Source of the DNA: Candidatus Chisholmbacteria bacterium RIFCSPHIGHO2_01_FULL_52_32
GTDB taxonomy: Bacteria; Patescibacteriota; Microgenomatia; UBA1400; Chisholmbacteraceae
Assembly: GCA_001816585.1 (NCBI GenBank)
Contig: MHCJ01000003.1
Coordinates: 220,228-284,227, forward strand
Reading direction: 5' to 3'
DNA length: 64,000 nt
This document shows positions 3,582 to 49,067 of the stretch, one piece after another. The position numbers and the translations under genes are program-made. The notes below the pieces were generated by a model. That model did no database searches. It had not been told where the DNA came from and was given only the letters and a program-made list of their open reading frames with translations. The stretch's first letter is position 1. Each line of letters opens with the position of its first letter.

Positions 3582-4283
3582 CTAGGAATTGCCTCTATTT
3601 CGATCGTTCCCTTTCCTATCTTGGGGAAACCGGAGCGCTAAATGTTCCAGGGTTAAGCGCGGATTGACGTTTGCATCAAGATCGAGAATCGCCTGATGAG
3701 TGAGTTTTACCACTTGGTACCACCAGGGGTCCAGCTTCATTTTCTCTCTTGCGAGCATGAGGATTTGGCGGAGCCTGGCCTTCGCTTCTTTTTGGTCAAT
3801 TTCGCCCACCGCTTTCAGACGCAGGGAAAGGGAGGGTTCCATGAGGCTCCGCGCGAGGTCAACTGCCTCGCCTCGGATCGTTGACCGCGGAGAAGGAGAG
3901 GTTGCCAGCATGAGCTGGCAGCGTGAACGAATGGTGGGGATGAGGGAATACTGGTTTCTGGTTTCCAGTATCAAGAAGGAGTTTGGTGCGGGTTCTTCAA
4001 GCGTTTTTAGGATCGCATGTTGGGCTTCGCGAGTCATGCGGTCGGCCCGAATTATAACGACGATCTTTGCTTTGCTTCTGAACGGTTTGAATTTAAGCGA
4101 TGAAATAATTCCCCTTATTGCCTCGATTCCGATGGTCGGATCGGGCCTTAAGATGAATGTGTCCGGATCGGAACGAATTAGCTCACTTTTATTTCCTGAC
4201 TCAGCCCGCAACCTGGCAATGAGATGCCTCACTTTTTCCCGGCGGGTTTTGGTTGTTCCTTGGCAGATGAGGAAGCTATGCAT
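3582..4283 (-). CDS. holB: DNA polymerase III delta-prime-like clamp-loader subunit
   Basis: 233 aa. SFLILETRNQYSLIPTIRSRCQ matches the delta-prime / AAA+ clamp-loader sensor motif (TIxSRC). Short for holB. Confidence 0.65.
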   Translation of the reverse strand: MHSFLICQGTTKTRREKVRHLIARLRAESGNKSELIRSDPDTFILRPDPTIGIEAIRGIISSLKFKPFRSKAKIVVIIRADRMTREAQHAILKTLEEPAPNSFLILETRNQYSLIPTIRSRCQLMLATSPSPRSTIRGEAVDLARSLMEPSLSLRLKAVGEIDQKEAKARLRQILMLAREKMKLDPWWYQVVKLTHQAILDLDANVNPRLTLEHLALRFPQDRKGNDRNRGNS

Positions 4284-4496: not shown

Positions 4497-6320
4497 TTGA
4501 CACCGCCCTCCTTCTCGCCTGGCGTATTTGGTGGAATTTATCATATGCCCAATGACCCTGCCACTTCAGACAGTCCACGTTCGAAACCGTCCTCTGCCCC
4601 CTCGTCCATTCTGGATTTCCTGCTTCAGGTAAAGACGCTTACTAAAGAGCAGTATGACCAGATTCGGTTTGAGTCGGCTAGCGGAGGAAGAAGCCCTGAA
4701 GATTTGATGGTTGAAAAAAACTTGGTCGGTGAAGAGGCGTTGGCTCGGGCAAAGGCCTCGTTCTATAATGTCCCCTTTCTCGATTTAGAGCGGACGGCCG
4801 CTTCTCCGGAGGCGCTTGATAAACTTCCCGAAAGTGTTGCCAGTCGGTATAAAGCGCTCCCTTTTGAATATAACCAGAAGGACAATACGTTGTCCGTGGC
4901 AATGGCAAACCCACTGGACCTTGAGGCAATCGAGTTTATCGAAAAGAAGTCTGGCTGTCAGGTCATTCCGTTCATGGTTGTTGAATCGCAACTTACGTCC
5001 TTGATCGGAGACCTCTATGCCCAGAGCCTTTCTGTCGAGGTTACCGAGGCTTTAAAAGAGGCGGCTCCGGGAGAGGGAAAGGTTACGACAATTGATATTA
5101 CGAAACTCGGGGAGGTCATCCGCGAGGCACCGATTGCGAAGGTCGTGGCAACCTTACTTGAGTTTGCGATTAAAGCCCGGGCTTCAGATATCCATATTGA
5201 GCCTTTGGTGGATAGAACACGGGTACGATACCGGATTGATGGGATTCTGGTAGAGAAGCTCATATTGCCACGGCGTGTCCATAACGCGGTCGTCTCGCGG
5301 ATCAAGATACTTTCCGGAATGAAGATTGACGAGAAAAGACTCCCGCAGGACGGTCGTTTCAATTTCAAGATTGGGGAGGAAGAGGTTGATCTTCGGGTTT
5401 CCACCTTGCCGATCGTCCATGGAGAAAAGGTGGTAATGCGGTTACTGAAGAAAACCGGTCGCGTTCCGACTATGCCCGAGTTGGGTCTGCGCGGTATGGC
5501 CCTGAAGAACCTCCAGGAAGCGGTTCGGGTTCCCCACGGAATTATCCTGATCACCGGTCCGACAGGATCTGGGAAGACGACGACGTTGTATGCGATTCTC
5601 TCCAAACTGAATACTCCTCAAGTGAATATCATCACCCTTGAGGATCCGGTGGAATACGAAATGGCCGGGGTGAATCAGGTCCAGGTTAACCCGCTGGCTG
5701 GCTTAACCTTTGCCTCAGGGATGCGCAGCTTCCTTCGGCAGGACCCCAATATCATCATGGTCGGTGAGGTACGAGATACCGAGACCGCAGAGCTTGCCAT
5801 CCAGGCATCGCTGACCGGGCACTTGGTCTTCTCAACCTTGCATACGAACTCCGCCTCTGGGGCTCTCCCCCGGCTTTTGGATATGAAAGCCGAGCCTTTC
5901 TTGTTGGCATCCTCGATGACTTGCGTAATGGCCCAGCGGGTGGTTCGAAAAATTTGTGAACATTGCAAAGCTCCGATTTCCCCCCCGCCCGAGCTCGTTA
6001 CGGATATGAAGAAGGTTCTCGGTTCGTTGTATGACACGGTCAGATACGGTCAGGGAACGGGAGAAGGAGCTGTCACGCTGTACCGAGGAAAACACTGTGC
6101 TGAATGCGGCGATACCGGATACAGCGGCCGGGTTGGGATTTTTGAAGTGCTGCCGGTGTCGGAGCGGATCGGGCGGCTCATCTTGGAACGTGCACCGGCC
6201 AGTCGTATTGAGGAACAGGCAGTTTCCGAGGGTATGGTGTTGATGAAGCAGGACGGATATTTGAAGGCTTTGGAAGGAATTACTACAATAGAAGAAGTGC
6301 TTAGAGTTGCGGAGTCCTAG
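4497..6320 (+). CDS. pilB: type IV pilus assembly ATPase PilB (GspE family)
   Basis: 607 aa. N-terminal GspII-like domain, Walker A ITGPTGSGKTTTLYA, C-terminal tetra-Cys (CEHC...CAEC). First gene of the pilus locus. Confidence 0.9.
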   Translation: MTPPSFSPGVFGGIYHMPNDPATSDSPRSKPSSAPSSILDFLLQVKTLTKEQYDQIRFESASGGRSPEDLMVEKNLVGEEALARAKASFYNVPFLDLERTAASPEALDKLPESVASRYKALPFEYNQKDNTLSVAMANPLDLEAIEFIEKKSGCQVIPFMVVESQLTSLIGDLYAQSLSVEVTEALKEAAPGEGKVTTIDITKLGEVIREAPIAKVVATLLEFAIKARASDIHIEPLVDRTRVRYRIDGILVEKLILPRRVHNAVVSRIKILSGMKIDEKRLPQDGRFNFKIGEEEVDLRVSTLPIVHGEKVVMRLLKKTGRVPTMPELGLRGMALKNLQEAVRVPHGIILITGPTGSGKTTTLYAILSKLNTPQVNIITLEDPVEYEMAGVNQVQVNPLAGLTFASGMRSFLRQDPNIIMVGEVRDTETAELAIQASLTGHLVFSTLHTNSASGALPRLLDMKAEPFLLASSMTCVMAQRVVRKICEHCKAPISPPPELVTDMKKVLGSLYDTVRYGQGTGEGAVTLYRGKHCAECGDTGYSGRVGIFEVLPVSERIGRLILERAPASRIEEQAVSEGMVLMKQDGYLKALEGITTIEEVLRVAES

Positions 6321-6355
6321 CTGTTCCATTAATTCTTAATTCGTGAAGGATCCTG

Positions 6356-7417
6356 ATGGATATTGTCAAGCTTCTTGAGAAAACGATTTCGGCTGCTGCC
6401 TCTGATTTACATATTGTTGTTGGTTTACCGCCAATGATCCGCGTTGAGGGAGAACTGTCTCCCGTCGAAGAGAGGCCGCTGACTGATGAAGAAACCCAGG
6501 AGATGGTCTTTTCGCTGCTTTCCCCGGAGCAAAAGGACCTCTTCTTAGTGAACCGAGAGCTCGATTTCTCCTATGACCATGAAGCGAAAGGGAGATTTCG
6601 GGTCAATGCCTACCACCAAAAAGGATTTGTTTCGGCCGCGCTGCGGCTCATCCCTTCCCAGATCCGGACCATTGAAGAGCTGAACCTTCCGAAGGTCCTC
6701 CATGATTTCGCCAAGCTCCGCCAGGGGTTTGTATTGGTCACCGGGCCTACCGGGCACGGTAAATCGACAACCTTGGCTGCGGTTATCCAGGAGATTAACG
6801 AGACTCAAGCCTCCCACATCGTGACCGTTGAAGACCCCATTGAATACGTCTACCCCATCGGAAGAAGCATCATTTCCCAGCGCGAGCTCCACTCGGATAC
6901 TCACTCTTGGGAAATTGCTCTCCGAAGTGCCCTTCGAGAAGACCCGGATGTGGTTTTGATCGGAGAAATGCGGGATTATGAAACCATCGCGGCAGCCCTC
7001 ACCATCGCTGAGACCGGCCACTTGGTTTTTGCGACCTTGCATACCAACAGCGCGGCCCAGACCATTGACCGGATTGTCGATGTGTTCCCCGAGCACCAGC
7101 AAGCGCAGGTCAAGATGCAGCTTTCAAACACGCTTGAAGCGGTGCTGTCCCAACGGCTCCTTCCTTCGGTAACCGGCGGAAGAATTCCCGTTGCAGAGAT
7201 TCTTTTGGCAAATGCGGCAGTCCGGACGACCATTCGTGAAGGAAAGACCCATCTTATCGATAACGTCATTCAAACTTCTGCCGACATCGGCATGAACACC
7301 TTGGAAACCAGCATGGCCTATTGGGTAAAGGCAGGGAAGCTTTCGCTTCAGGTTGCGACAGAGTGGGCGCTCCGGCCGGCTGAACTTCGGCGGCTGGTCC
7401 GTGGCGGAAAGGAGTAA
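6356..7417 (+). CDS. pilT: twitching-motility / pilus retraction ATPase PilT
   Basis: 353 aa. Walker A VTGPTGHGKSTTLAA and typical PilT size. Immediately downstream of pilB. Confidence 0.9.
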   Translation: MDIVKLLEKTISAAASDLHIVVGLPPMIRVEGELSPVEERPLTDEETQEMVFSLLSPEQKDLFLVNRELDFSYDHEAKGRFRVNAYHQKGFVSAALRLIPSQIRTIEELNLPKVLHDFAKLRQGFVLVTGPTGHGKSTTLAAVIQEINETQASHIVTVEDPIEYVYPIGRSIISQRELHSDTHSWEIALRSALREDPDVVLIGEMRDYETIAAALTIAETGHLVFATLHTNSAAQTIDRIVDVFPEHQQAQVKMQLSNTLEAVLSQRLLPSVTGGRIPVAEILLANAAVRTTIREGKTHLIDNVIQTSADIGMNTLETSMAYWVKAGKLSLQVATEWALRPAELRRLVRGGKE

Positions 7418-7447
7418 GATTGTTGGCTTTCTGGTGGGCCTGCCTGT

Positions 7448-8656
7448 ATGGAGCAATTTCGGTATAAAGCAAAATCTCATGAGGGTGGAAAAGCACAAAG
7501 CGGAAAAGTTGAGGCACGTGACATTCGTCAGGCAGCCTCCATTCTTCGTGAAAGAGGCTTAGTGGTTGTTGGGCTTTCTCCGATCAGCCACCACATCCGC
7601 TTCACCTTCGTTTCCTCCTTTTTACATCGGGTGAAGTTTGTCGACATCGCTAATTTTACCCGTCAGCTGTCTACAATGATTACGGCAGGATTGCCGCTCA
7701 CGGACTCGTTGTCTCTGTTGGAAACCCAGGTTTCCCCCGGGCTTCAGACGATCGTTTCCGAAGTCCTGCGGGACGTCGAGGGTGGAAAGCCGCTCGGTGA
7801 GGCGCTCGAGAAGCACCCGCATGTATTTAACACGGTCTACGTTTCCTTGGTCCGGGCCGGGGAGGCGGCGGGAAAGCTTGATGAAATGCTCGCCAGACTT
7901 GCCGACAACCTTGAGAAAGAGAGGGAGTTCCGGGCGAAGACCAAAGGGGCAATGATCTACCCTCTTATCATTATTATCGGCATGATCATCGTCACGGCGG
8001 TCATGATGATTTTTGTGATTCCGAAGATGACTCAATTGTATGACGACTTTGGGGCGAAGTTACCCTTTGCCACTCTTCTTTTGGTGAATATCTCCAAATT
8101 CTTTTCCTCATTTTGGTATATTGTGCTTCTCATTGGGGTGGGGTCAAGTTGGATGTTTCGCCTTTGGCGTGCAACCCCCATAGGACGGCGATCGTTTGAT
8201 GAGTTTATCTTCCGCATACCGGTCTATGGGAACTTGCGCAGAGAGGTGTTGCTTGCAGAATTTTGTCGGACGCTGGGTTTGTTGGTGGGTGCGGGTGTTT
8301 CGATCGTTGAGGGATTGAATATCGTATCCGATACCTTGCCCAACCAGGTCTACGCCGATTCCGTGCGCGAGACCGCAAAAAGAGTCGAAAAAGGGCTTTC
8401 CGTTGCGGCAACAATCGCTTTGTATCCCCATTTCCCCCCTATTCTTTCGCAGATGCTTTCCGTCGGAGAGGAGACGGGAAAAATCGATGAGGTGTTATTG
8501 AAACTCGCCGTCTATTTTGAAACGGAATCGGAACACCTCATAAAAGGCTTGACAACCGCAATTGAGCCTCTTATCATGGTTTTCTTAGGCATCGGTGTCG
8601 GGTTTTTGGTCATCTCAGTGATCATGCCGATTTATAACCTCACCAGCCAAATGTAA
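7448..8656 (+). CDS. pilC: type IV pilus inner-membrane platform protein PilC (GspF family)
   Basis: 402 aa. Two GspF repeats with TM segments. Confidence 0.85.
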   Translation: MEQFRYKAKSHEGGKAQSGKVEARDIRQAASILRERGLVVVGLSPISHHIRFTFVSSFLHRVKFVDIANFTRQLSTMITAGLPLTDSLSLLETQVSPGLQTIVSEVLRDVEGGKPLGEALEKHPHVFNTVYVSLVRAGEAAGKLDEMLARLADNLEKEREFRAKTKGAMIYPLIIIIGMIIVTAVMMIFVIPKMTQLYDDFGAKLPFATLLLVNISKFFSSFWYIVLLIGVGSSWMFRLWRATPIGRRSFDEFIFRIPVYGNLRREVLLAEFCRTLGLLVGAGVSIVEGLNIVSDTLPNQVYADSVRETAKRVEKGLSVAATIALYPHFPPILSQMLSVGEETGKIDEVLLKLAVYFETESEHLIKGLTTAIEPLIMVFLGIGVGFLVISVIMPIYNLTSQM

Positions 8657-9433: not shown

Positions 9434-9988
9434 ATGAAACTCAAACTCTCAAGAGGATTTACCCTTATTGAGCTACTGATCGTCATTGCGGTGTTGGGAA
9501 TCCTTGTGGTTGCCATCCTTTCCGCCCTTGATCCTTTAGAGCAATTACGCAAAGCGCGGGATGCCGGACGAAAATCCGATGCGGCTGAACTGTTGGCTGC
9601 TTACGAGCGGTACTACACCACCTACAACTGTTATCCTTGGGATACCGGTGCACCGACCTGTACGGCGGTTGTCAACAGAGCTGTGGCTGTCAATCCGAAC
9701 TTTGCCGTGGCCGGTGATGATTACCGTCTGATCACTCAAGGTGAGATGAAAGCCCAGTTTGCAAACCGGCGGACTGTGATAGCCACGACGCCCGCTGCAG
9801 AGCGGTTGTTTGTGAGCGAAATTGCCGCTACGCGACAAGCTTCAGTCTGTTTTGAGCCCGAATCCGGATCGGCGAGAAACGCGGGTGCCCAAGGACCATT
9901 GCGCACCAATACGAATGCGCCGGATGCGGACAACCTCTGCACCGGGACGTATCCGAACGCATCTTGCTTTATCTGCGTTCCGCAGTAA
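9434..9988 (+). CDS. type IV major pilin paralog 2
   Basis: MKLKLSRGFTLIELLIVIAVLGIL... The N-terminal 78 aa are identical to paralog 1. The C-terminal half is divergent but retains identical internal patches (DYRLITQGEMKAQFANRRTV) and Cys pairs. Confidence 0.85.
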   Translation: MKLKLSRGFTLIELLIVIAVLGILVVAILSALDPLEQLRKARDAGRKSDAAELLAAYERYYTTYNCYPWDTGAPTCTAVVNRAVAVNPNFAVAGDDYRLITQGEMKAQFANRRTVIATTPAAERLFVSEIAATRQASVCFEPESGSARNAGAQGPLRTNTNAPDADNLCTGTYPNASCFICVPQ

Positions 9989-36244: not shown

Positions 36245-36290
36245 TCGATAAGTTTTCCCATCTTGAGGCTACGGATAATGTAAAGGAATC

Positions 36291-36358
36291 CCTGCCTCGA
36301 ACCACCGACCTGTCCGATGGATCGGACCGCTCTAACCAACTGAGCTACGGACCCCCCC
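36291..36358 (-). pseudogene. truncated tRNA-like element
   Basis: Reverse complement begins GGGTCCGTAGCTCAGTTGGTTAGAGCG (good acceptor 5' strand plus D-arm). It continues as a perfect hairpin GTCCGAT-CC-ATCGGAC where the anticodon arm should be, then AGGTCGGTGGTTCGAGG (variable plus T-stem/loop identical to the neighbouring tRNA-Val). No T-stem 3' strand or acceptor 3' strand follows. Confidence 0.4.
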
Positions 36359-40411: not shown

Positions 40412-40708
40412 TTATAAGGAGAGCTTTTTTAAAAGCCTTCGGAAGAGCGATGGTTTGCGGGTTTCTTTTTCCTGTTTTGTCCACACGGAAAGGATGACCC
40501 ATTCTTCTTTCTCATTCTTTTTTGCCACGACCCGCATGGACTGGTTTTCCCATGTCTTCTTGTATACCCAGGCACCTTTGATCCGGGCGTATTCGGAGAG
40601 ATCGGGATTTCTCCATGTAGCCCAGGCGTCTGACTGTTTGATGCCCCGTTTTCGCATCCGATCGAGCGCATGGTTTGTCCAGATGACACCGCCGAAATGT
40701 TGGTCCAT
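40412..40708 (-). CDS. DUF4258-like small protein
   Basis: 98 aa. IWTNHALDRMRKRGI resembles the DUF4258 N-terminal motif. Confidence 0.45.
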   Translation of the reverse strand: MDQHFGGVIWTNHALDRMRKRGIKQSDAWATWRNPDLSEYARIKGAWVYKKTWENQSMRVVAKKNEKEEWVILSVWTKQEKETRKPSLFRRLLKKLSL

Positions 40709-42316: not shown

Positions 42317-42477
42317 CTGGTTCGACAGGCTCACCATTCGCGTGAGGCTGTCGAAGCAAATTGATGAAGGGATGAGAAGTTTACCTCTTCGAGCCTGAGC
42401 GATTCGACTGAGCTCATCGTAGATAACCTCAGAGCCGAAAGCCTGAGTGAAATCGAAGGGATTCCCTTCACCCGCTC
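42317..42477 (+). repeat. 160-nt tRNA-associated mini-element ending in an 18-nt direct repeat of the tRNA-Gly 3' end
   Basis: gattcccttcacccgctc at 42300-42317 (T-loop to 3' end of the tRNA) recurs at 42460-42477. The segment between starts with a perfect 14-bp hairpin ttcgacaggctcac/gtgaggctgtcgaa and shares gggatgagaagtt ... cctgagtgaaatcgaaggg with the element after tRNA-Gln. Confidence 0.5.
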
Positions 42478-43540
42478 ACTTGTTGTTCCTTCGAAGTCCG
42501 TAGCGCGTTTCGGCTGCGCTTATGAGAGTTTTTATCAGCTCATCATAATCCATCCCCGCTACACGGGCGGCGAACGGAAAATAGGAACTTTTTGAGACCT
42601 CTGGGGGAGTTAGCCCCGGCGGAGAGTTGATTTCGAGGAAAAACGGATTTTCCTCTTCATCGCAGCGGATATCGATTCGGGAGAGATCTTTGATGTCCAA
42701 TGCCTCCCAGATTTGTCTACCCATGTTCTCCAATTTTCCGCGGAGTCTGGTATCGATTTTGGCGGGACAGAGGAGATGGTCGCTATCTTTTTCTTCTTCC
42801 ACGTACCATTTCACTTCGAGGGAATCGAGCGGTTGGTAGCCTTTGGGTAAGTGTGCGTGGTTTGATTCGATAATCGGGAGAAATTTTGGCGGATTGCCAA
42901 GCATTGCAATAGAGAATTCCCTGCCTGTCAGGAATGGCTCAACGAGGGCGGGTTCGTGAAATGTTTTTAGAATCAGAGTTACCTGCTTTTTCAACTCGGC
43001 ATCGCTTCGGACGACGCTGTCGTTTGTTATCCCGGCTGAAGAACCTTGACCAACCGGTTTGACGATGAGCGGATAAGAGAGACGGCTTTCCCGCTTGTCG
43101 TCTGGGGAGCTGAACAGTTGGTACGGGAGCGTCGGTATTCCGTACGCCTTGCAAAGCTGTTTGGCTTTTGCCTTGTTCATCACCAGCGCTTGGGTTAACG
43201 GAGAGGCGCCGGTATAGGGAATACCTAGCATTTCACACATCGCCGGGATGTGGGCGTAACGATCTTTACCGTGTATCCCGAGGGAATAGTTCAATGCCAG
43301 GTAAATTTCATATCTGTGGCTGTAAAGCGACAGGTAGGCTTTCTCGTCGGCTTCTATTTGCAGGACGTTGTAGCCCACGTGTTTGAGGTGGCTCACCATC
43401 TCCTCGATAGCTTGTGGGTCATCGTAGTCCGCTTCTGTGTACGTTGAGGGGTCTTTAGGGTCCGGATAGCGGTGCCTGACGTTATACAAGAATGCGATGA
43501 GGCGTTTGTTCACGGGTTTGCGGGTAGTTGCCATGTCCAT
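42476..43540 (-). CDS. D-alanine--D-alanine ligase family ATP-grasp enzyme (paralog 1)
   Basis: IHGKDRYAHIPAMCEMLGIPYTGASPLTQALVMNKAKAK matches the Ddl N-terminal/central region. ATP-grasp C-terminal part (EPFLTGREFSIAMLG...IRCDEEENPFFLEINSPPGLT). Start uncertain; the track ORF runs to 43588 and overlaps paralog 2. Confidence 0.7.
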   Translation of the reverse strand: MDMATTRKPVNKRLIAFLYNVRHRYPDPKDPSTYTEADYDDPQAIEEMVSHLKHVGYNVLQIEADEKAYLSLYSHRYEIYLALNYSLGIHGKDRYAHIPAMCEMLGIPYTGASPLTQALVMNKAKAKQLCKAYGIPTLPYQLFSSPDDKRESRLSYPLIVKPVGQGSSAGITNDSVVRSDAELKKQVTLILKTFHEPALVEPFLTGREFSIAMLGNPPKFLPIIESNHAHLPKGYQPLDSLEVKWYVEEEKDSDHLLCPAKIDTRLRGKLENMGRQIWEALDIKDLSRIDIRCDEEENPFFLEINSPPGLTPPEVSKSSYFPFAARVAGMDYDELIKTLISAAETRYGLRRNNK

Positions 43541-44621
43541 TACCGTCCGGTGTCGGTAGTACCTTTGTTCCGACTCCCGTTGCGTCACGCATGGTATTTA
43601 ACAGCAGTCTTTTGAGAATTTCCACAAAAGAAATTCCGTACAGATTCAGGATGTTTGCAAGCGCGCAATCCACTTCTTTCGGGCCGAAGGCCGGATTGGA
43701 GTTTGCGTCGATGAAAAAGTAGCGTCCGGAGCTGTCCATGCGAACGTCAAACTTTCCGTAATCGGCCATTTTCGTAATCTCAAATGCCCGTTTGACGTAC
43801 GCTTTCAACAGCTCATCATGATACCGTTGATAGTGGAACGATTCATCTCCGTGCAGTAACCATTGGTCCTCAAAGGTTGAGAAGACGTACTGTTGGTTTT
43901 CTTTATGGAAGACTTTTTCAGCCAGGTATACTTTCTTGTTTAAGCCTTCAAGGAGCATACCGGTAATTTCACGGCCGACAATAAACTCTTCGACTAAGAC
44001 CGGCTGGTCGTATGTTTGGGTTAAGAATTTGATGCGATCGCGGAGGTGTTTCTCGTTTTCCGAGATTGCGTCCACGGTTATTTCAACGCCGCCGTGGATT
44101 TCGTTTAACTTGGAGATAAGGGGAAAGCGAAGCGTTGGATCGAGTGGGTCATTGGGCGTGTTGAATAGCTGGTTGTTCGGTACGGGAACGCCGTACTGTT
44201 GGAGGAGTTTTTTGACCAAAAACTTGTTGTAGTCAAGTGACTCTCCCAAGATTCCGGCTCCGGTATAGGATATTCCCAACAATTCGAGCACAGCGGGAAT
44301 GGTTGATGCCAAGTATTCGTTTCCTTTGACGGAACCGACCAAATTCATGACGATATCAGGCTTATCGCGGCGAAGCTTTTGCGGGAGCAGAGCATCTCCG
44401 GGGTAAAGCTCGGTTCGGATGCCCATCTTTTCCAAGTAGCTTACGATGATTTTCGCATCATGGAGTGCGTCTTTTTCCGTGAGGTACTGCGCTTCTGTGG
44501 GAAAGTATTCTCGCTTGACTTCGCTATAGGTGACTGCGACTTTCTTTGGAAGCTCAAGGGGAGTTTTGCCGTTTTGGGTCGTTGGCTGGCTGGGCGGTTT
44601 GTCTTCGGTGTCTGCGTTCAT
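43482..44621 (-). CDS. D-alanine--D-alanine ligase family ATP-grasp enzyme (paralog 2)
   Basis: VMNLVGSVKGNEYLASTIPAVLELLGISYTGAGILGESLDYNKFLVKKLL and an ATP-grasp C-terminus. Tandem to paralog 1. Confidence 0.7.
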   Translation of the reverse strand: MNADTEDKPPSQPTTQNGKTPLELPKKVAVTYSEVKREYFPTEAQYLTEKDALHDAKIIVSYLEKMGIRTELYPGDALLPQKLRRDKPDIVMNLVGSVKGNEYLASTIPAVLELLGISYTGAGILGESLDYNKFLVKKLLQQYGVPVPNNQLFNTPNDPLDPTLRFPLISKLNEIHGGVEITVDAISENEKHLRDRIKFLTQTYDQPVLVEEFIVGREITGMLLEGLNKKVYLAEKVFHKENQQYVFSTFEDQWLLHGDESFHYQRYHDELLKAYVKRAFEITKMADYGKFDVRMDSSGRYFFIDANSNPAFGPKEVDCALANILNLYGISFVEILKRLLLNTMRDATGVGTKVLPTPDGNGHGNYPQTREQTPHRILV

Positions 44622-44824: not shown

Positions 44825-44927
44825 CACTTCGACAAGCTCAGTGCTTTAGCACCGGGGTTGTAGAAGCATTGGCAGGGATGAGAAGTTGACCCTGAGTGAA
44901 ATCGAAGGGAATCCCTGCCTCCCAGCA
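44825..44927 (+). repeat. ~100-nt tRNA-associated mini-element ending in a 19-nt direct repeat of the tRNA-Gln 3' end
   Basis: gaatccctgcctcccagca at 44808-44826 recurs at 44909-44927. The element shares ttcgacaRgc, aagca, gggatgagaagtt and cctgagtgaaatcgaaggg with the tRNA-Gly(GCC) element. tRNA-Leu(TAA) begins 7 nt later. Confidence 0.5.
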
Positions 44928-45017: not shown

Positions 45018-45120
45018 CAAATGACTTAAAACTTAAAACTGAAGACTTAAGACGCAAAACGAAAGAGGAGCATGACATTTAGTATTTGGTCTTTCCTGTT
45101 AAGTTGACTATAAGGCAATC

Positions 45121-45175
45121 GCGGAGAGTGGAGCAGCTGGTAGGACGCCCCGTGAGATAAAGAAGTTAAGCGTAT
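45121..45175 (+). pseudogene. tRNA 5'-half-like fragment
   Basis: GCGGAGAGTGGAGCAGCTGGTAGGAC resembles an acceptor strand plus D-arm. Anticodon/T arms are not recognisable downstream. Confidence 0.3.
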
Positions 45176-45189
45176 CACTATTACAATTT

Positions 45190-45264
45190 CGGAGCGTAGT
45201 TCATCGGTAGAACGCTCGGTTTGGGACCGAGAGGTAGTGGGTTCAATTCCCTCCGCTCCGACCA
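45190..45264 (+). tRNA. tRNA-Pro (anticodon TGG), CCA encoded
   Basis: CGGAGCG/CGCTCCG acceptor, GTTC/GAAC D-stem, CTCGG/CCGAG anticodon stem with loop TTTGGGA, GTGGG..CCCTC T-arm, ACCA 3' end. Confidence 0.85.
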
Positions 45265-45269
45265 ATTAA

Positions 45270-45410
45270 TTTTGGTGAGTAGAGCCAGTGTTCGAGTCTC
45301 GACCTCCAACATTGTATCTCACGGGGAGGTCCCGGGTTCGAATCCCGGCTCTCCGACATCGTATCTACCGGGGGGGTCGTCAGTTCAAATCTGACATCCC
45401 CGACATTGCT
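45270..45410 (+). other. array of three ~45-nt tRNA acceptor/T-arm minihelix-like units
   Basis: Unit 2 (45322-45358): CGGGGAG-GTC-CCGGG-TTCGAAT-CCCGG-CTCTCCG-ACA, where the 7-bp acceptor pairs and a T-arm is closed by a 3-nt linker. Unit 3 (45369-45405): CGGGGGG-GTC-GTCAG-TTCAAAT-CTGAC-ATCCCCG-ACA. Unit 1 (about 45270-45310) is degenerate. Each is preceded by tNgtatctNNc. Confidence 0.4.
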
Positions 45411-45434: not shown

Positions 45435-46421
45435 TCAAAGTCCCCGTTTTTCCCTTCGTATTTTTTCTATGAAATAGGTTATCCAATATCGGGGAGAGAG
45501 TACGTAGTCCTTTGCGTGAACGTACGTTTCCGCATACCCTCCGAATCCCTGTTTAAATAGAGTAATACCCGCCCATGGATGATTAGGTTCATTTTCCGGG
45601 GCAATACCCCAAAAGTTATAGCGTTTTAGGCCGCTCTTTTTTGCTTCACGGATAGCTTCCCATTGCAGCAGAGCGGACGCGGGGACGCTCGGGTACTTTT
45701 GGCTTGAGGCGCCGTGATGGTAAAAGGCGCTTCCGTTACTTTTGATTACCATTGCTCCCGAAACAATTTCCCGGTTGTACTTTGCAAAGAACCACATTGC
45801 CTGACCGTCTTTTCGGAAAACCTCAAATTCCGTTGTGAGGTACTGTTCGGAGAACGGGGTAAACCGCTGACGGTCGACGGTGGTTCCGTAGAGAGGGAAA
45901 AAACGTAGGCTGTGTTTCGGATTATCGCTTTGTATTATTCGGACGCCGTCTCTTTGGGCTTTACGGATTGAATATCGAGTCGTTTTTCGCATGCTTTTTA
46001 AAAGTTCCTCTTCACTTGGCCGTAAATCGAGAATCCAAGAACGCTCCGCATGCATATGGGTAGGAGCGTTGCGAAATCCAAGAGAAAGGAAGAGCTTTTC
46101 GTTGTCATCCGCGGCCTCCATCAGCGGGCTTACTCTCACGAACGAGCAATTTTCTTTTCTTGCGATCAGTTTCCCTTCACTGAGAAATTTTTTGATGTCT
46201 GTTTTTCTTTCCTCAAGCGACCGCGCTTTGAAGATCGGGCCGTGCGGACAAAAAAGAAATGTTCCCCGGCGGGCGGGGATTTTTATGAACAAGGCAACGG
46301 CAATGAGGCCATTCTTTTTGCTTATGCCTAAACGGAAGATTTTGTAGCCAAGTTTTTTATGGAATTCTCCCCAATTCCATGAATGCAGGAACGTGTTTGG
46401 GGCTTGGGATTCCATGAACAC
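45435..46421 (-). CDS. FemAB-family peptidoglycan interpeptide-bridge aminoacyltransferase
   Basis: 328 aa. FemAB/FemX-like pattern (two GNAT-like halves, ...SAFYHHGASS...). Confidence 0.75.
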   Translation of the reverse strand: MFMESQAPNTFLHSWNWGEFHKKLGYKIFRLGISKKNGLIAVALFIKIPARRGTFLFCPHGPIFKARSLEERKTDIKKFLSEGKLIARKENCSFVRVSPLMEAADDNEKLFLSLGFRNAPTHMHAERSWILDLRPSEEELLKSMRKTTRYSIRKAQRDGVRIIQSDNPKHSLRFFPLYGTTVDRQRFTPFSEQYLTTEFEVFRKDGQAMWFFAKYNREIVSGAMVIKSNGSAFYHHGASSQKYPSVPASALLQWEAIREAKKSGLKRYNFWGIAPENEPNHPWAGITLFKQGFGGYAETYVHAKDYVLSPRYWITYFIEKIRREKRGL

Positions 46422-46462
46422 TTCCCACTTCGATTTGGAATCAATTGGAGAGAGTGCCGTAG

Positions 46463-47695
46463 TCAGCGATACCTCCTCAAGTGGTTGATAATTGTCTGTG
46501 CGTCGTTTTCCGATATGTGGATGTGGGTCGGCAGATTGATCGATTGGCGACAGAGTTTTTCGGCAACCGGACAGCTACCCGGTTTATAACCCACCTTTCT
46601 TACGTTTACTCCGGCCGGTGCCACCGGAGTTTGGTACCAGTCCCCCAGCTCGATATGGTTTTGCCTCGCTTCCCTGATAATACGCGTTGCCATATTAGAA
46701 CGGACTGTATAACGAAGGTAGATGGGTTTTATGTTTTTCTTCTCGATCGGAAGCACGAGTTCACTGTTTTCCAGTTCCCTATTGTAGATCTTGGTGATTT
46801 TTCTTCGGTGCGCGTTAAAGCGCTCTAATTTTTGGAATTGGTGTAAGGCCAGAAGGGCAAGTGCATTGGGTATTTTTTTGTCTATGAAGGAGGGTTTCCG
46901 GCCCTGCTTTTCCAGTTCCTCCACCGCTTTTGAAAGCAGCGTCAATCGATACGCCAACCAGAGCAGTGCCTTTCCGAAGGAAAACATTTCGTACATCGGT
47001 TTTGCAACTGCCGTCATGGGAAGATGGCGGAGCTGCTTAAGAATCCAGTATCTTGATGGATACGGTAATGATTGCTGATACCGGCTTATTTTGAGAGCCA
47101 ACAAAGAGTTATTTGTCACGGCAACGCCGCCGAAAATTGAGGACAGCACTTTATCTCTTCCAAAGCTAAAAAAACCGGCGTCACCGAATGACCCGACAAG
47201 CTTTCCTTTGTACCTTGCGCCCATTGCGTGCGCGCAGTCCTCAATCACAAAAAGCTTATGTTTCTTCGCGAGTTTGAGAAGAGCATCCATTTCTGCAGGG
47301 TGGCCGAAGGTATGTTGGATAATGAGGACTTTGCTTCTCGCGGTGATCTTACGGGTGAGATCCGCCGGGGACATCGTAAAGGTTTGTTCTTCGCAGTCGA
47401 CGTACACGGGTGTTACCCCTGCCCAGATAACCGGGTCCGGTACCGCCACGCAGGTATAGGCTTGGAGTAATACCTCATCCTCTTTATTGAGGTTGAGCGA
47501 TGACAGAATAGCCAGGAGACAGGACCGTCCGCATGAGAATGCGAACGCATGTTTTATTGGTAACCAGTTTTTGAACGCGTTTTCAAGACTTACGGCTGCG
47601 CTGCCCGTGACCCATTTTCGGGGTGAGAAGAACGTTTTTATCGCGAGCACGATGTCATCTGTCTCTGCGTTCGGTGAAAGACTGGTAAAAATCAT
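46463..47695 (-). CDS. DegT/DnrJ/EryC1/StrS-family PLP-dependent sugar aminotransferase
   Basis: 410 aa. EDCAHAMGARYKGKLVGSFGDAGFFSF...K resembles the AAT I-fold sugar aminotransferase active-site region. Confidence 0.7.
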   Translation of the reverse strand: MIFTSLSPNAETDDIVLAIKTFFSPRKWVTGSAAVSLENAFKNWLPIKHAFAFSCGRSCLLAILSSLNLNKEDEVLLQAYTCVAVPDPVIWAGVTPVYVDCEEQTFTMSPADLTRKITARSKVLIIQHTFGHPAEMDALLKLAKKHKLFVIEDCAHAMGARYKGKLVGSFGDAGFFSFGRDKVLSSIFGGVAVTNNSLLALKISRYQQSLPYPSRYWILKQLRHLPMTAVAKPMYEMFSFGKALLWLAYRLTLLSKAVEELEKQGRKPSFIDKKIPNALALLALHQFQKLERFNAHRRKITKIYNRELENSELVLPIEKKNIKPIYLRYTVRSNMATRIIREARQNHIELGDWYQTPVAPAGVNVRKVGYKPGSCPVAEKLCRQSINLPTHIHISENDAQTIINHLRRYR

Positions 47696-48684
47696 CGCAG
47701 TCGTTTTGTTACCACCTTTTTCGTAACCTTGATGGATGTTGGGCCGCGGTCGGCAAGGATAATCGGATTTTGCAGGATATCCACACTTAACGTTTTGCCT
47801 CCGAATTTCAGAGGAATGTCACAGCCTATTGAACAAGCAATGCGGTCGCTTCCGACAAAACCGAACCTGCCTGATTTTGAAAATCTTCCGGTTGTCCGTA
47901 AGTTTTCTGCCGAAGGATCGACCGGAAGCCATCTCCCATCGGGAAGCAGGACTTCGGCCCAGGCGTGCATGGTGCTTTTCGGATAGCCCGCCCAAAAGCC
48001 GGAAACGAGGCGGGCGGGCAGATGTTGGGCAATACAGAAGCTTATAAACAAGGTGTTAAATCCCCCGCAATCCACGCTTGGCATCTCAAGGGCATCCAGG
48101 GACGTGTAAAGCCCTTCAATGGGATTTCCATAGGTCAGATGAGTTACCACATATCGGTTGAGTTTGCGGGCTATGAGGCGCGGATCGGTTTCTCCGCGAA
48201 CGATGGTTTTTGATAAAACTTTTATCCTGTTTGAGTTTGATTGAAGGTGTGTGCTCGGACGGAAGAAAAGCAATGCCTCTTTGGGAACGACTTTCGTGTG
48301 TTTGATGCCCGAAAGCCCGATCATTTCCACTTTCCTCGGTGAAACCTCCACTGCGGCGGTGAGGCTAAATCGTCGTGTTTCGTTGGACGCAAGGACTATG
48401 TTCCAACTTGCATACTCGTTTCCGAAGACATCATCTGTTCGGATGTCGGTCGGAATTGGCCGATATTTTGTCCCTGCTTGCCTTCTTTGGTACGGCGTCT
48501 CCAGAGGAACGGGGATTGAAACGGAAATGCTGTTTTTCCTCGCGGCCGTGTTTTTGACCGAGACTCTGAAGCGAAGCAGATAGGTTTGTTTTGTGGTGAA
48601 GAAAGACAGACCCAGTTTTTCCCGGGCCAGCGATATGTTTTTCTTGATGAACACTGAAGAGGATGAGCCCATTATTACCAGCAC
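47692..48684 (-). CDS. transglutaminase-like cysteine peptidase superfamily protein
   Basis: CGGFNTLFISFCIAQHLPARLVSGF...HAWAEVLLPDGRWLPVDP: Cys-His-Asp transglutaminase core. Confidence 0.65.
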   Translation of the reverse strand: MLVIMGSSSSVFIKKNISLAREKLGLSFFTTKQTYLLRFRVSVKNTAARKNSISVSIPVPLETPYQRRQAGTKYRPIPTDIRTDDVFGNEYASWNIVLASNETRRFSLTAAVEVSPRKVEMIGLSGIKHTKVVPKEALLFFRPSTHLQSNSNRIKVLSKTIVRGETDPRLIARKLNRYVVTHLTYGNPIEGLYTSLDALEMPSVDCGGFNTLFISFCIAQHLPARLVSGFWAGYPKSTMHAWAEVLLPDGRWLPVDPSAENLRTTGRFSKSGRFGFVGSDRIACSIGCDIPLKFGGKTLSVDILQNPIILADRGPTSIKVTKKVVTKRLR

Positions 48685-48909
48685 GTCGTCCGCTTATTCT
48701 ATCCTATTTAACAATCTACCGCCTCCATACCGATCGTTAAACGAGACAGCATTATTCAACTTCCTGGCTTGTGGAAATCGATCTGCGGACATCTGTTTTG
48801 TCTATCGGTCGGGCTGTGGTAAAATTTGGATGTCTCACGCGGGTATAGTTGAAAGGCTGGACGTCAAACGTCCCAGGCAATGCCACCCTTCCCCGCCTGC
48901 AGACGCTAT

Positions 48910-48980
48910 GCGGGATTAGTACAATGGTAGTACGCCACCCTTCCAAGGTGGATGTGCCAGTTCGATTCTGGTATCCCGCT
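48910..48980 (+). tRNA. tRNA-Gly (anticodon TCC)
   Basis: GCGGGAT/ATCCCGC acceptor, GTAC/GTAC D-stem, CCACC/GGTGG anticodon stem with loop CTTCCAA, GCCAG/CTGGT T-stem. TTGTCT-16 nt-TAAAAT promoter-like sequence ~45 nt upstream. Confidence 0.85.
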
Positions 48981-48994
48981 CAGAGCGTTGCATT

Positions 48995-49040
48995 GCGGGC
49001 AGGCAAGGTGGAGATGCGGGTTCGATTCCCGCTATCCGCT
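48995..49040 (+). other. internally deleted tRNA-Gly copy (acceptor 5' strand + anticodon-loop-to-3'-end half)
   Basis: GCGGGCA-G-GCAAGGTGG-AGAT-GCGGG-TTCGATT-CCCGC-TATCCGC-T. CAAGGTGG equals the 3' half of the tRNA-Gly(TCC) anticodon loop and stem. Lies 15 nt after the intact tRNA. Confidence 0.45.
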
Positions 49041-49067
49041 CATCTTGCCAAAAGGAGGATGAGCGAG

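Follow-up and report, generated by a model that had tools for sequence, protein, structure and literature searches.

Probable scars of repeated gene replacement around the tRNA-Pro gene of a Candidatus Chisholmbacteria genome

The tRNA-Pro locus

The window analysed here, a 64-kb stretch of the Candidatus Chisholmbacteria RIFCSPHIGHO2_01_FULL_52_32 genome and the sole part of that genome covered by our copy counts, contains a live tRNA-Pro(UGG) gene with an encoded CCA at positions 45190-45264 of the forward strand, the strand that also carries the other parts of this locus. The gene is recognised by ARAGORN and scores 64.7 bits against the Rfam model RF00005; by both methods, it is the only complete cloverleaf at the locus above the RF00005 threshold (29 bits). 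Three independent metagenome assemblies of this species contain the locus without a single difference in sequence, so that an assembly artefact can be dismissed, and the repeat units described below show no variation among the three contigs. The organism is present in the samples ERZ4903070, ERZ28563591 and ERZ27254756. The neighbouring genes encode Ddl-like ligases and a FemAB/DegT/transglutaminase-like operon, with the gene for a FemAB-family aminoacyl-tRNA-dependent transferase located 30 nt from the array of units. Genes for integrases, transposases or nucleases were not found within or adjoining the locus, nor was any GIY-YIG gene detected in the 64-kb window. In relatives, tRNA-Pro is directly followed by tRNA-Gly(UCC) and the array is absent, whereas here the two tRNA genes are separated by a 3.3-kb cell-wall operon that starts directly after the units.

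Upstream of the live gene, positions 45122-45152 appear to represent the 5' half (tRNA positions 1-31) of an older tRNA-Pro copy that we denote v2. This fragment comprises an acceptor strand (CGGAGAG), a D-arm (GAGC-AGCTGGTA-GGAC) in which only two of the four stem pairs can form, and an anticodon-stem strand (CCCCG), and shares 20-21 of its 31 positions with the corresponding part of CPR tRNA-Pro genes. The old anticodon-stem strand together with the next 7 nt makes up the left arm, CCCCGTGAGATA (45148-45159), of a perfect 12-nt inverted repeat. The spacer that leads from the old 5' half to the live gene (45160-45189) is devoid of recognisable homology: it does not match the model of the T-loop element discussed below, nor is it significantly similar to the sequence preceding the 5' fragment.

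Downstream of the live gene, three units are arranged head-to-tail with a period of ~47 nt, so that tRNA-like pieces are indeed present on both sides of tRNA-Pro, as had been noticed in a sequence-only reading of this DNA. Judging from sequence and fold, unit 1 (45274-45311) is a decayed tRNA-Pro 3' unit with a TTCGAGT motif and the end CCTCCA-ACA; it has no T-stem and lacks the GTATCT leader, and its 3' end, which reads A followed by CAT, aligns with the 3' ends of units 2 and 3. Unit 2 (45322-45358) follows a leader, TTGTATCTCA (45312-45321), the last 7 nt of which, together with CGGGG, form the right arm (45315-45326) of the inverted repeat; the unit itself would be the 3' half (positions 39-76) of v2 and consists of CGGGG, AGGTC, CCGGG-TTCGAAT-CCCGG, CTCTCCG, A and CA. 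Unit 3 (45369-45405), preceded by the leader TCGTATCTAC (45359-45368), consists of CGGGG, GGGTC, GTCAG-TTCAAAT-CTGAC, ATCCCCG, A and CA, and is probably the 3' half of a third tRNA-Pro version, with an acceptor of the type found in the other CPR tRNA-Pro genes compared. The T-arms of units 2 and 3 (45332-45348 and 45379-45395) have perfect 5-bp stems, and both units are preceded by T[TC]GTATCT; unit 1, which the sequence-only reading had counted among three acceptor/T-arm minihelix-like repeats, has neither feature. Units 2 and 3 abut, with the 10-nt conserved leader and no cargo between them.

The two better preserved units differ from each other in 12 positions, 8 of these in the T-stem and all 8 compensated, and, when 37 nt are compared, show 73% (unit 2) and 62% (unit 3) identity with the 3' part of the live gene. 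Furthermore, unit 3 matches the tRNA-Pro genes of two other CPR loci (L012 and L158) in 28 of 38 positions, compared to 23 of 38 for the adjacent live gene. Thus, units 2 and 3 appear to derive from different functional tRNA-Pro genes. The description of these units as the top half of a tRNA with the D and anticodon arms deleted needs correcting to that of ordinary 3' halves that span positions 39-76 and include normal variable loops. Both CGGGG and the [AG]GGTC variable loop are exact features of real CPR tRNA-Pro genes, and what looks like an acceptor strand joined to GTC can equally be read as the 3' strand of the anticodon stem followed by the variable loop. The terminal ACA is present in the units, yet is hardly a special ending: it seems to correspond to the discriminator and the ordinary flank of a tRNA gene, given that C follows the discriminator in all 15 tRNA genes of the window and CA in 8 of these, and that the live tRNA-Pro of a relative ends in CCCCG-ACAT. 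The combination of normal variable loops with the normal gene flank (A, then CAT) implies that the units are genomic copies rather than copies of a CCA-tailed RNA.

Does the upstream fragment lack a 3' half, as had been proposed? Its acceptor strand is complementary to that of unit 2 (CGGAGAG/CTCTCCG) in 7 of 7 positions, and CCCCGTGAGATA (45148-45159) is complementary to TATCTCACGGGG (45315-45326) in 12 of 12, 7 nt of the repeat extending beyond the anticodon stem; among 20000 shuffled versions of the 400-nt region, 59 contained a 12-nt inverted repeat with separate arms. ARAGORN calls a tRNA in the in silico fusion of the 5' fragment with unit 2, which has 7/7 pairs in the acceptor stem, 5/5 in the anticodon stem, 5/5 in the T-stem and 2/4 in the D-stem. 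Unit 2 thus appears to be the missing partner, and the two pieces would be the halves of a single older tRNA-Pro gene interrupted at the anticodon loop. The 169-nt insert between the halves contains the live tRNA-Pro(UGG) and the decayed unit 1, and where v2 would have had its anticodon loop, the stem continues for another 7 bp (TGAGATA/TATCTCA). For unit 3, no 5' partner was found, the complement of its leader and stem having no copy in the window.

The window contains 16 perfect T-arm patterns, whereas dinucleotide shuffles give 1.75 on average and no more than 5, and such T-arms therefore are not a chance occurrence; all three orphan T-arms lie no more than 120 nt from a tRNA gene. The fold put forward for the units, a 7-bp stem joined by GTC to a T-arm, is predicted for unit 2 in isolation (with GUC in the RNA), but the stem of unit 3 is 6 bp long. 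Compared with shuffles, the predicted folding advantage is modest for unit 2 (z -1.7) and unit 3 (z -2.3 to -3.5) and does not extend to unit 1 (z -0.8). In the minimum free energy structure of the whole locus (z -3.5), unit 2 pairs with the 5' fragment around the live gene instead of forming a minihelix. A relaxed-cutoff tRNA search had been suggested as a check on the units; run with Rfam and ARAGORN, it accepted none of them, the best score being that of a partial match to unit 2 (14.4 bits vs the threshold of 29). RF00005 did not match units 1 and 3 or the 5' fragment, ARAGORN with relaxed scores and introns allowed reported no credible extra tRNA at the locus, and Rfam searches at gathering and relaxed thresholds yielded only tRNAs and sub-threshold noise.

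tRNA debris, cargo islands and a hairpin element at other loci

Debris of this kind is found at 5 of the 15 tRNAs in the window, namely tRNA-Pro and four others. At tRNA-Gly(UCC), an old 5' half (48839-48892) and an old 3' half (49004-49042) enclose the live gene; the old acceptor strands pair in 7 of 7 positions, the T-stem differences are compensated, and in the predicted fold the live gene is bracketed by complementary flanks. The same order of old 5' half, live gene and old 3' half is seen at tRNA-Cys in another Patescibacteria genome (L055), with the break between G34 and C35 and 7/7 pairs between the old acceptor strands. Thus, in three cases, an older copy broken in its anticodon loop encloses the live gene. 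Arrays of orphan 5' parts are found at L243 and L238, the latter with clean 82-nt tandem repeats of a truncated tRNA-Ala. In the window, direct repeats of the 3' part also follow tRNA-Gln, tRNA-Gly(GCC) and tRNA-Gly(UCC), and the displaced 3' copies start either in the anticodon loop (Pro, Gly-UCC) or in the T-loop (Gln, Gly-GCC). A truncated tRNA is present near tRNA-Val as well; its 9-nt match to the Gln element is at the chance level for 64 kb and was discarded.

In relatives, tRNA fragments flank small islands of defence genes and stand among GIY-YIG nuclease genes. The islands bounded by tRNA 3'-end copies include a Fic/SoFic-type gene at L230 (E = 2e-32) and PDC-M68A at L154 (6e-26); in the syntenic tRNA cluster of L158, GIY-YIG genes are interspersed among the tRNAs, and small GIY-YIG genes also occur within that of L208, next to tRNA fragments. 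Foreign cargo between an intact gene and a fragment was seen only in related loci of the T-loop type (L154 and L230), and no recombinase was found in the cargo of the L154, L208 and L230 islands. Integrase, transposase and nuclease genes were likewise not found in the cargo of the related islands.

A separate observation concerns a conserved hairpin element that joins tRNA 3'-end copies to such islands. It combines a stem that covaries with the target tRNA and an invariant 31-nt loop, carries no recombinase, and is absent from Rfam and from the literature that we searched. In the window, a covariance model of the element with filters off detects only the Gln and Gly(GCC) copies. We considered the trailer of the 5' fragment (CCCCG-TGAGA..GAAGTT) as a homologue of the loop start of this T-loop element (X-TGAGAAGTT) and rejected this possibility because the same model finds nothing in the Pro locus. 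The tRNA-Ser loci compared have only the tRNA and the hairpin element in common and are therefore uninformative with regard to presence/absence polymorphism of the islands.

The array is not conserved beyond this species and has no copies elsewhere. The unit motif has no other copy in the 64-kb window and no matches in JGI metagenome contigs, findings that speak against the proposal of tRNA-derived mobile repeats. A phage or viral origin was likewise rejected, neither unit 2 nor the core of the hairpin element having matches in viral contigs. Our search of the literature on repeat sequences, tRNA introns or islands in CPR produced nothing relevant.

Replacement of tRNA genes and its rivals

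How could such an arrangement come about? The pieces at the Pro locus are probably scars of repeated tRNA-gene replacement, and we consider it fairly likely that what lies around the working tRNA-Pro(UGG) are non-functional leftovers of two or more tRNA-Pro versions that were either older or foreign. Most likely, the pieces are debris rather than a new kind of small RNA. The order of events that we infer is as follows. Incoming DNA would land preferentially in the tRNA genes of these bacteria and break them in the anticodon loop or the T-loop. On the assumption that the tRNA is essential and probably present as a single copy, the only insertions to survive would be those that bring a replacement for a part or for the whole of the gene. 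The old half or halves would be pushed aside and decay, and repeated rounds would build arrays. Under this scenario, v2 is represented by two matching halves that were parted by an insert with the live gene and unit 1, and unit 3 would be the 3' half of a version still earlier than v2. The agent could be a site-specific recombinase acting in trans or break repair after cutting by a GIY-YIG nuclease of the kind encoded within these tRNA clusters in relatives. The lost T-stem of unit 1 and the 2/4 pairs in the D-stem of the 5' fragment look like signs of decay, and the same debris at other tRNAs and in related CPR loci supports displacement scars. Thus, the earlier suggestion of serial displacement of tRNA 3' ends by integrative elements remains the best fit, although it needs amending in that 5' halves were displaced as well, and it has to contend with the lack of an integrase and of cargo between the units. 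A nested version of this scheme, with one insertion inside another, predicts homologous leaders upstream of the 5' fragment and of the live gene; their alignment is no better than those of shuffles (2582/5000), and we discarded it.

Several features fit less easily. Units 2 and 3 abut without cargo, so that classical integration would have to be combined with three exact deletions, unless the inserts were tiny and "empty". With standard integrase chemistry, a single half of the target is displaced, and a displaced 5' half with its matching 3' half therefore calls for two events or for another mechanism. The 7-bp extension in place of the v2 anticodon loop is predicted by no simple insertion model. 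Furthermore, a functional RNA under selection would likewise be expected to show perfect T-arms, intact acceptor complementarity and a conserved leader. A more radical, rather unlikely possibility is that CPR renew their probably single-copy tRNA genes via a dedicated, so far undescribed insertion system. The anticodon loop or the T-loop would be the landing site of short cassettes, either empty or loaded with defence genes or GIY-YIG nucleases, that bring a replacement part or a whole replacement gene, and the hairpin element would serve as an attachment or guide module. The well-retained halves, for instance units 2-3 or unit 2 paired with the 5' fragment, might even be expressed as tRNA-like RNAs.

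Expression of the pieces also is the essence of a quite improbable rival, in which they are functional, CCA-tailed tRNA-like RNAs used outside translation: either minihelices (units 2 and 3) cut from the tRNA-Pro transcript or a two-piece molecule in which the 5' fragment anneals to unit 2, the resulting 12-bp "anticodon" arm being devoid of an anticodon. In isolation, units 2 and 3 fold as minihelices, but when the whole transcript is folded, the predicted partner of unit 2 is the 5' fragment and no minihelix results from it, and expression as minihelices is not favoured. The fully compensated T-stem differences and the conserved 10-nt leader are suggestive of selection, yet the compensated stems are equally well explained by descent from different functional genes, and unit 1 and the D-stem have decayed. 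Debris would not be expected to feature a 12-bp extension of the old anticodon stem, and the whole locus folds better than shuffles, as noted above; against this, the array is missing in relatives, where tRNA-Gly directly follows tRNA-Pro, and has no copies in metagenomes. Bacterial ProRS depends on the anticodon bases G35/G36, which these RNAs do not have. The nearby FemAB-family transferase gene made minihelices that serve as dedicated aminoacyl carriers an appealing candidate, which we rejected: in four homologous loci, where FemAB is 55-59% identical and the Transglut-DegT-FemAB or DegT-FemAB operon is kept, FemAB never has an adjacent tRNA, none lies downstream of it (4/4), and the only tRNA found (L126) is 4.5 kb upstream.

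A purely local origin, through tandem copies of the tRNA-Pro gene or its 3' half that arose by replication slippage or unequal crossing-over and then underwent drift and deletion, with no foreign DNA or mobile element involved, appears to be similarly improbable. The head-to-tail order, the 47-nt period and the common leader of the units are compatible with such duplication, and the truncated tRNA-Ala repeats of L238 provide a precedent. However, drift would not be expected to swap four of the five T-stem pairs with perfect compensation while the leader and the loops stay nearly constant, and unit 3 is closer to tRNA-Pro of other lineages than to its neighbour. Nor does duplication place a divergent live gene between matching halves, as is the case at tRNA-Pro, tRNA-Gly(UCC) and the L055 tRNA-Cys.

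We regard as very improbable the notion that the 5' fragment and unit 2 form a processing stem that presents precursor tRNA-Pro, and likewise tRNA-Gly, to a double-strand-specific RNase, in the manner of the stems flanking rRNAs: complementary flanks do bracket both live genes in the predicted folds, but their D-arm and T-arm identify them as tRNA halves rather than generic complementary sequence, the helices are short and interrupted, relatives have no such flanks at tRNA-Pro, and the other 13 tRNAs of the window lack them as read through, which was not a systematic check. An intron-containing tRNA was rejected after ARAGORN, with introns of up to 300 nt, found none, and a group I intron because these introns are not known to be shorter than 200 nt whereas the insert is 169 nt, 75 nt of which are a high-scoring tRNA.

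If replacement of tRNA genes indeed accounts for the locus, minihelix-like fragments beside Patescibacteria tRNA genes should, in annotation, first be read as remains of replacement and not as new RNA genes. The three live genes inside broken older copies, along with the arrays of halves, suggest that the tRNA genes of these loci turn over by insertion and not by point mutation alone. The same tRNA sites would be entry points of cell-wall operons and small defence islands, and the hairpin element could provide a handle on the integration of mobile DNA in CPR, where the loci examined yielded no integration machinery.

Comparison with known systems

An acceptor-like stem with a T-arm, as in minihelices, mascRNA and the plastid tRNA-remnant motifs RF04351 and RF04354, is a possible fold for units 2 and 3 and for the Gly(UCC) orphan. 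The matches to the respective models are far below threshold, however: RF04354 weakly matches the Gly(UCC) orphan (23 bits), RF04351 matches the opposite strand of unit 2 (15 bits), and the mascRNA model matches only full live tRNAs, below threshold. Unlike in these systems, the Pro units are not conserved, and their "5' acceptor strand" is better accounted for as the 3' strand of the anticodon stem plus the variable loop.

The split tRNA genes of Nanoarchaeum equitans resemble v2 in that the 5' and 3' halves are apart and the sequences after and before them are exact reverse complements (12 nt here). The organism studied here, however, is a bacterium, and the two halves of v2 are encoded in cis, on either side of another tRNA and with 169 nt between them. 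The helix is continuous, with no bulge-helix-bulge, and the anticodon loop sequence is gone on both sides, so that, with no anticodon in either half, joining could not yield a decoding tRNA.

Free-standing GIY-YIG homing endonucleases occur in tRNA clusters, as exemplified by SegB of phage T4, and the interleaving of GIY-YIG genes with the syntenic tRNA clusters of L158 and L208 is reminiscent of this arrangement; break repair after the cutting of a conserved tRNA gene could insert a resistant copy. In contrast, this window has no GIY-YIG gene, and classical homing replaces its target seamlessly and leaves no pair of old halves.

The attachment-site scars of integrated islands are the remaining comparison. 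As reportedly described by Williams in 2002, islands and prophages are flanked by attL/attR repeats of the 3' part of a tRNA gene, with crossover in the anticodon loop or the T-loop; tRNA-bordered islands include CIMEs, which are cargo-poor cis-mobilisable elements. The loci described here depart from this pattern in having no integrase in or near any of them, and the Pro locus does so in further respects, namely units that abut with 10 nt between them and no cargo, displacement of the matching 5' half such that the live gene sits inside the old one, and replacement of the old anticodon loop by the 7-bp stem extension. What they share with island scars is the order of a live tRNA followed by displaced copies of the 3' part, with units 2 and 3 running from position 39 to the discriminator plus CA, the origin of the displaced copies from a different allele, and the presence of accessory or defence cargo bounded by such copies at the related loci.

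The tRNA-Pro gene and the repeats beside it

The window, which comes from a Patescibacteria (CPR) genome, contains 15 tRNA genes that are grouped in two clusters (ARAGORN, Rfam), and the sole tRNA call at the locus discussed here is the live tRNA-Pro(UGG) gene at 45190-45264 (ARAGORN; Rfam, 64.7 bits), which is followed by three repeats of ~47 nt (units 1, 2 and 3, at 45274-45311, 45322-45358 and 45369-45405). Contigs from other metagenomes, three in all, match the window at 99.2-99.8% identity and show no difference throughout 45118-45410, so the locus is reproducible and, for the same reason, these contigs carry no information on its evolution. The sequence-only reading had described the repeats as minihelix-like, and this description holds for two of them: the T-arms of unit 2 (CCGGG-TTCGAAT-CCCGG, 45332-45348) and unit 3 (GTCAG-TTCAAAT-CTGAC, 45379-45395) are perfect, and both units fold as described, with modest z-scores in isolation (-1.7 for unit 2, -2.3 to -3.5 for unit 3), whereas unit 1 lacks a T-stem and its fold is no more stable than shuffles. 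Perfect T-arm patterns number 16 in the window compared to a mean of 1.75 in shuffles, and the three that fall outside tRNA genes each lie within 120 nt of one.

What, then, are these units? Over 37 nt, units 2 and 3 show 73% and 62% identity, respectively, to the 3' part of the live tRNA-Pro, and alignment with seven reference tRNA-Pro genes from the fetched loci, mostly of CPR, identifies both as positions 39-76, in the order CGGGG (the 3' strand of the anticodon stem), [AG]GGTC variable loop, T-arm, 3' acceptor strand and A. The reference genes have CGGGGAN/NTCCCCG acceptors or near variants with discriminator A, and in five of the seven the variable loop is AGGTC or GGGTC. In this alignment, the GTC that had been taken for a linker between acceptor stem and T-arm forms the end of the variable loop, and the 5' acceptor strand is only apparent, CGGGG[AG]G resembling the tRNA-Pro 5' end by chance. 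The terminal ACA, judged by comparison with complete genes, is the discriminator plus gene flank and not a degenerate CCA: C follows the discriminator in all 15 tRNA genes of the window (CA in eight), all three units end in A followed by CAT, and the live tRNA-Pro of the related locus L158 ends CCCCG-ACAT. Because the unit ends match ordinary gene flanks, the units are copies made from genomic DNA, gene and flank together, and not from mature RNA.

The fragment upstream of the live gene (45122-45152) is, as had been noticed, part of a tRNA: a tRNA-Pro 5' half with an acceptor strand, a D-arm (two of four stem pairs) and an anticodon-stem strand. It had been thought to lack a 3' half; the partner exists, however, and is unit 2. 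The fragment's acceptor CGGAGAG is the exact complement of CTCTCCG in unit 2, and 45148-45159 (CCCCG and the next 7 nt) exactly complements TATCTCACGGGG (45315-45326), which consists of the leader preceding unit 2 and the first 5 nt of the unit. Of shuffles of the 400-nt region, 0.3% contain a 12-nt inverted repeat whose arms are separate, and the one observed fits the register of the tRNA structure. When the two pieces are joined in silico, the product is called as a tRNA; the RNA fold of the whole locus (MFE -113.3 kcal/mol, z -3.5) pairs them around the live gene and leaves unit 3 as the only local minihelix. Thus, the complementary acceptors, the 12-nt repeat, the tRNA call and the joint fold lead us to conclude that a single older tRNA-Pro gene, v2, survives as two halves, the 5' fragment and unit 2. 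Its anticodon loop is the site of a 169-nt interruption holding the live tRNA-Pro and unit 1, and no anticodon-loop sequence is retained; in its place stands a 7-bp stem extension, which no simple insertion model predicts.

Debris at other tRNA genes and the case for gene replacement

Such debris lies beside five of the 15 tRNAs in the window, tRNA-Pro included. tRNA-Gly(UCC) (48910-48981) has the same architecture as tRNA-Pro, being nested within its own older version: the 5' half of that version (48839-48892), starting with GCGGGTA-TA-GTTG and ending within the anticodon, comes first, the live gene lies 17 nt further on, and another 22 nt separate it from the old 3' half (49004-49042; positions 36-76 plus CA, 74% identity), which starts within the anticodon. 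The old 5' half terminates in an exact 11-mer corresponding to positions 26-36, GCCACCCTTCC; the old acceptor strands GCGGGTA/TATCCGC pair in 7 of 7 positions; the differences between the old (GCGGG/CCCGC) and live (GCCAG/CTGGT) T-stems are compensated; and complementary flanks bracket the live gene, as they do at tRNA-Pro. This nesting replicates the tRNA-Pro arrangement independently. Furthermore, exact 18-19-nt self-copies from T-loop to 3' end follow tRNA-Gly(GCC) (42460-42477) and tRNA-Gln (44909-44927). On the minus strand, ~45 nt upstream of tRNA-Val(GAC), there is a 5' three-quarters of a tRNA (~36290-36352; no Rfam score) with acceptor, D-arm, anticodon arm with a 6-nt CAT-containing loop and 5' T-stem strand, cut inside the T-loop (TTCGAG). 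A gene for a 98-aa protein with DUF4258 (E = 6e-9; 40412-40708, minus strand), a domain that we take to be toxin-like, lies directly after tRNA-Lys(CUU), where the minus-strand cluster borders on other genes.

The same kind of debris is found in other genomes. In L055 (Patescibacteria, 1860-2150), the 5' half of an older tRNA-Cys ends at G34 and is followed by an insert, the live tRNA-Cys and the old 3' half from C35, and the old acceptor strands pair in 7 of 7 positions; L243 (1-300) carries two orphan tRNA-Cys 5' halves, each cut after G34 and continued by T(G)TCCC; and in L238 two truncated tRNA-Ala copies form an 82-nt tandem upstream of the live tRNA-Ala(GGC) (9872-9944 of the oriented segment). 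Across 247 sources, an orphan copy of the gene's own 3' part lies within 220 nt of 28 of the 180 tRNAs, downstream in 27 of the 28 cases, in a sample that is biased, having been mostly fetched by the element motif discussed below.

Of the three readings offered at the outset, serial displacement scars provide the best explanation, and we favor, as reasonably probable, the view that the array consists of scars left where inserted DNA has repeatedly replaced the tRNA-Pro gene. The original version has to be extended because 5' halves were displaced as well and an old gene can enclose the live one. Pairwise comparison over 38 aligned positions gives 23-26 identities among the live 3' half, unit 2 and unit 3, whereas unit 3 shares 28 of 38 with the tRNA-Pro of L012 and L158; units 2 and 3 show 12 differences, eight of these in the T-stem, every one compensated. 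This pattern fits descent of the units from different functional tRNA-Pro genes; a 5' partner for unit 3 is not present in the window. The same pattern would also fit selection on an RNA, and a function of the pieces as putative small tRNA-like RNAs could draw on the intact T-arms, the conserved leader (T[TC]GTATCT before units 2 and 3, at 45312-45321 and 45359-45368) and the stem extension of v2, but we consider such a function improbable. Neutral drift after local duplication is at odds with the compensated differences and with the likeness of unit 3 to L012 and L158. Of further leads, neither a leader shared by the 5' fragment and the live gene, as nested insertion would predict, nor homology of the 5' fragment's trailer to the element described next is supported; the unit motif had no matches in JGI metagenome contigs, and unit 2 had none in viral contigs.

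An element between tRNA genes and copies of their 3' ends

Between tRNA-Gln and tRNA-Gly(GCC) and the respective 3'-end copies lies a conserved hairpin (T-loop element; 44827-44927, with the hairpin at 44869-44921, and 42318-42477) that recurs in L004, L012, L061, L115, L155, L158, L178, L206, L211, L230 and others. After a spacer, 6 nt to 2 kb long, it comprises a 7-9-nt segment complementary to the 3' T-stem strand of its own tRNA, a nearly invariant loop of ~31 nt, (T)GAGAAGTTTAYCCTGAGTGAAATCGAAGGRA, and a copy of positions 57 to 73/76; the Gly(GCC) copy in the window carries a ~60-nt insertion in the loop. The 22 distinct instances, at tRNAs including Asp, Gly, Gln, Ser, Leu, Arg, Glu and Phe, have stems that are 79.8% paired, with compensatory changes in seven of nine pairs; doubly changed cells number 41, against 16.1 +/- 3.3 in shuffles (none of 500 reaching 41) and 6-14 with the register slid. 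The hosts are Blackburnbacteria, Levybacteria, Parcubacteria and other Patescibacteria, and the element is also present in groundwater and sediment metagenomes. The hairpin may act at the DNA level, as an attachment site, or at the RNA level. At the tRNA-Gln element (44870-44895), none of the three same-species assemblies is undisturbed: L003 ends there, L002 contains a gap of Ns and mismatches are clustered in L001, a pattern that points to failure of short-read assembly in the repeat or to population polymorphism at the site.

The element has no Rfam family, and we found no description of it in the literature searched; the same literature yielded none for a very widespread class of short palindromic repeats that includes its 18-nt core. 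This class, the 18-mer CCTGAGTGAAATCGAAGG with the reverse-complement-type partner CCTTCGAC..CTCAGG and near variants, spans many phyla (Chloroflexota, Planctomycetota, Omnitrophota, Acidobacteriota, Pseudomonas and others; L005-L123 and L130-L249 generally, e.g. L078 and L195), sometimes as arrays of 24-nt units arranged head to tail. In most cases no tRNA lies nearby, and the class shows no link to tRNAs there.

Gene blocks and islands in tRNA clusters

An ancestral cluster, ...Leu-UAA, Pro-UGG, Gly-UCC, x, His..., with Gly(UCC) directly after Pro, is common to L158, L012 and L061. In the window, it is broken by two cell-wall gene blocks, each starting right after tRNA debris: a Transglut-DegT-FemAB operon (45435-48684) between the Pro units and Gly(UCC), and two genes for Ddl-like ATP-grasp ligases (42476-44621) between Gly(GCC) with its duplicate and Gln, which are adjacent in L158. 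The FemAB-family protein (45435-46421, minus strand) has its top matches in Uhrbacteria, Wolfebacteria, Woykebacteria and other CPR groups (protein search), with at most 59% identity to any match outside its own species. The DegT-FemAB block, usually with a transglutaminase-like gene, occurs in unrelated contexts in other CPR genomes. A link of FemAB to the array was rejected, given four loci with FemAB homologues and no tRNA downstream of FemAB.

The L158 cluster (6255-8603), syntenic with that of the window (Gly-GCC, Gln ... Leu-UAA, Pro, Gly-UCC, x, His, Arg, Lys), is interspersed with four intact genes for GIY-YIG nucleases of 82-92 aa and a stop-interrupted one, beside tRNA fragments; no GIY-YIG genes are found in the window. 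Among the neighbours of the GIY-YIG genes in L158 is also an aberrant tRNA-His-like sequence that carries large insertions (~7690-7790). L208 likewise has a GIY-YIG gene (3583-3867). Replacement of tRNA genes could be the work of a trans-acting recombinase or, alternatively, of break repair following GIY-YIG cleavage.

Islands of ~2 kb beside a tRNA gene, bounded by the T-loop element and a tRNA 3'-end copy, are present in L230 (4030-6470), L154 (248-2360) and L208 (3583-6260), and in L230 the full element with a tRNA-Ser 3' end lies on both sides of the cargo. The genes of these three islands include no recombinase and match candidate anti-phage defence families, namely a PDC-S04/SoFic-type Fic protein (2e-32), an endonuclease-like PDC-M68A (6e-26) and PDC-M28A.
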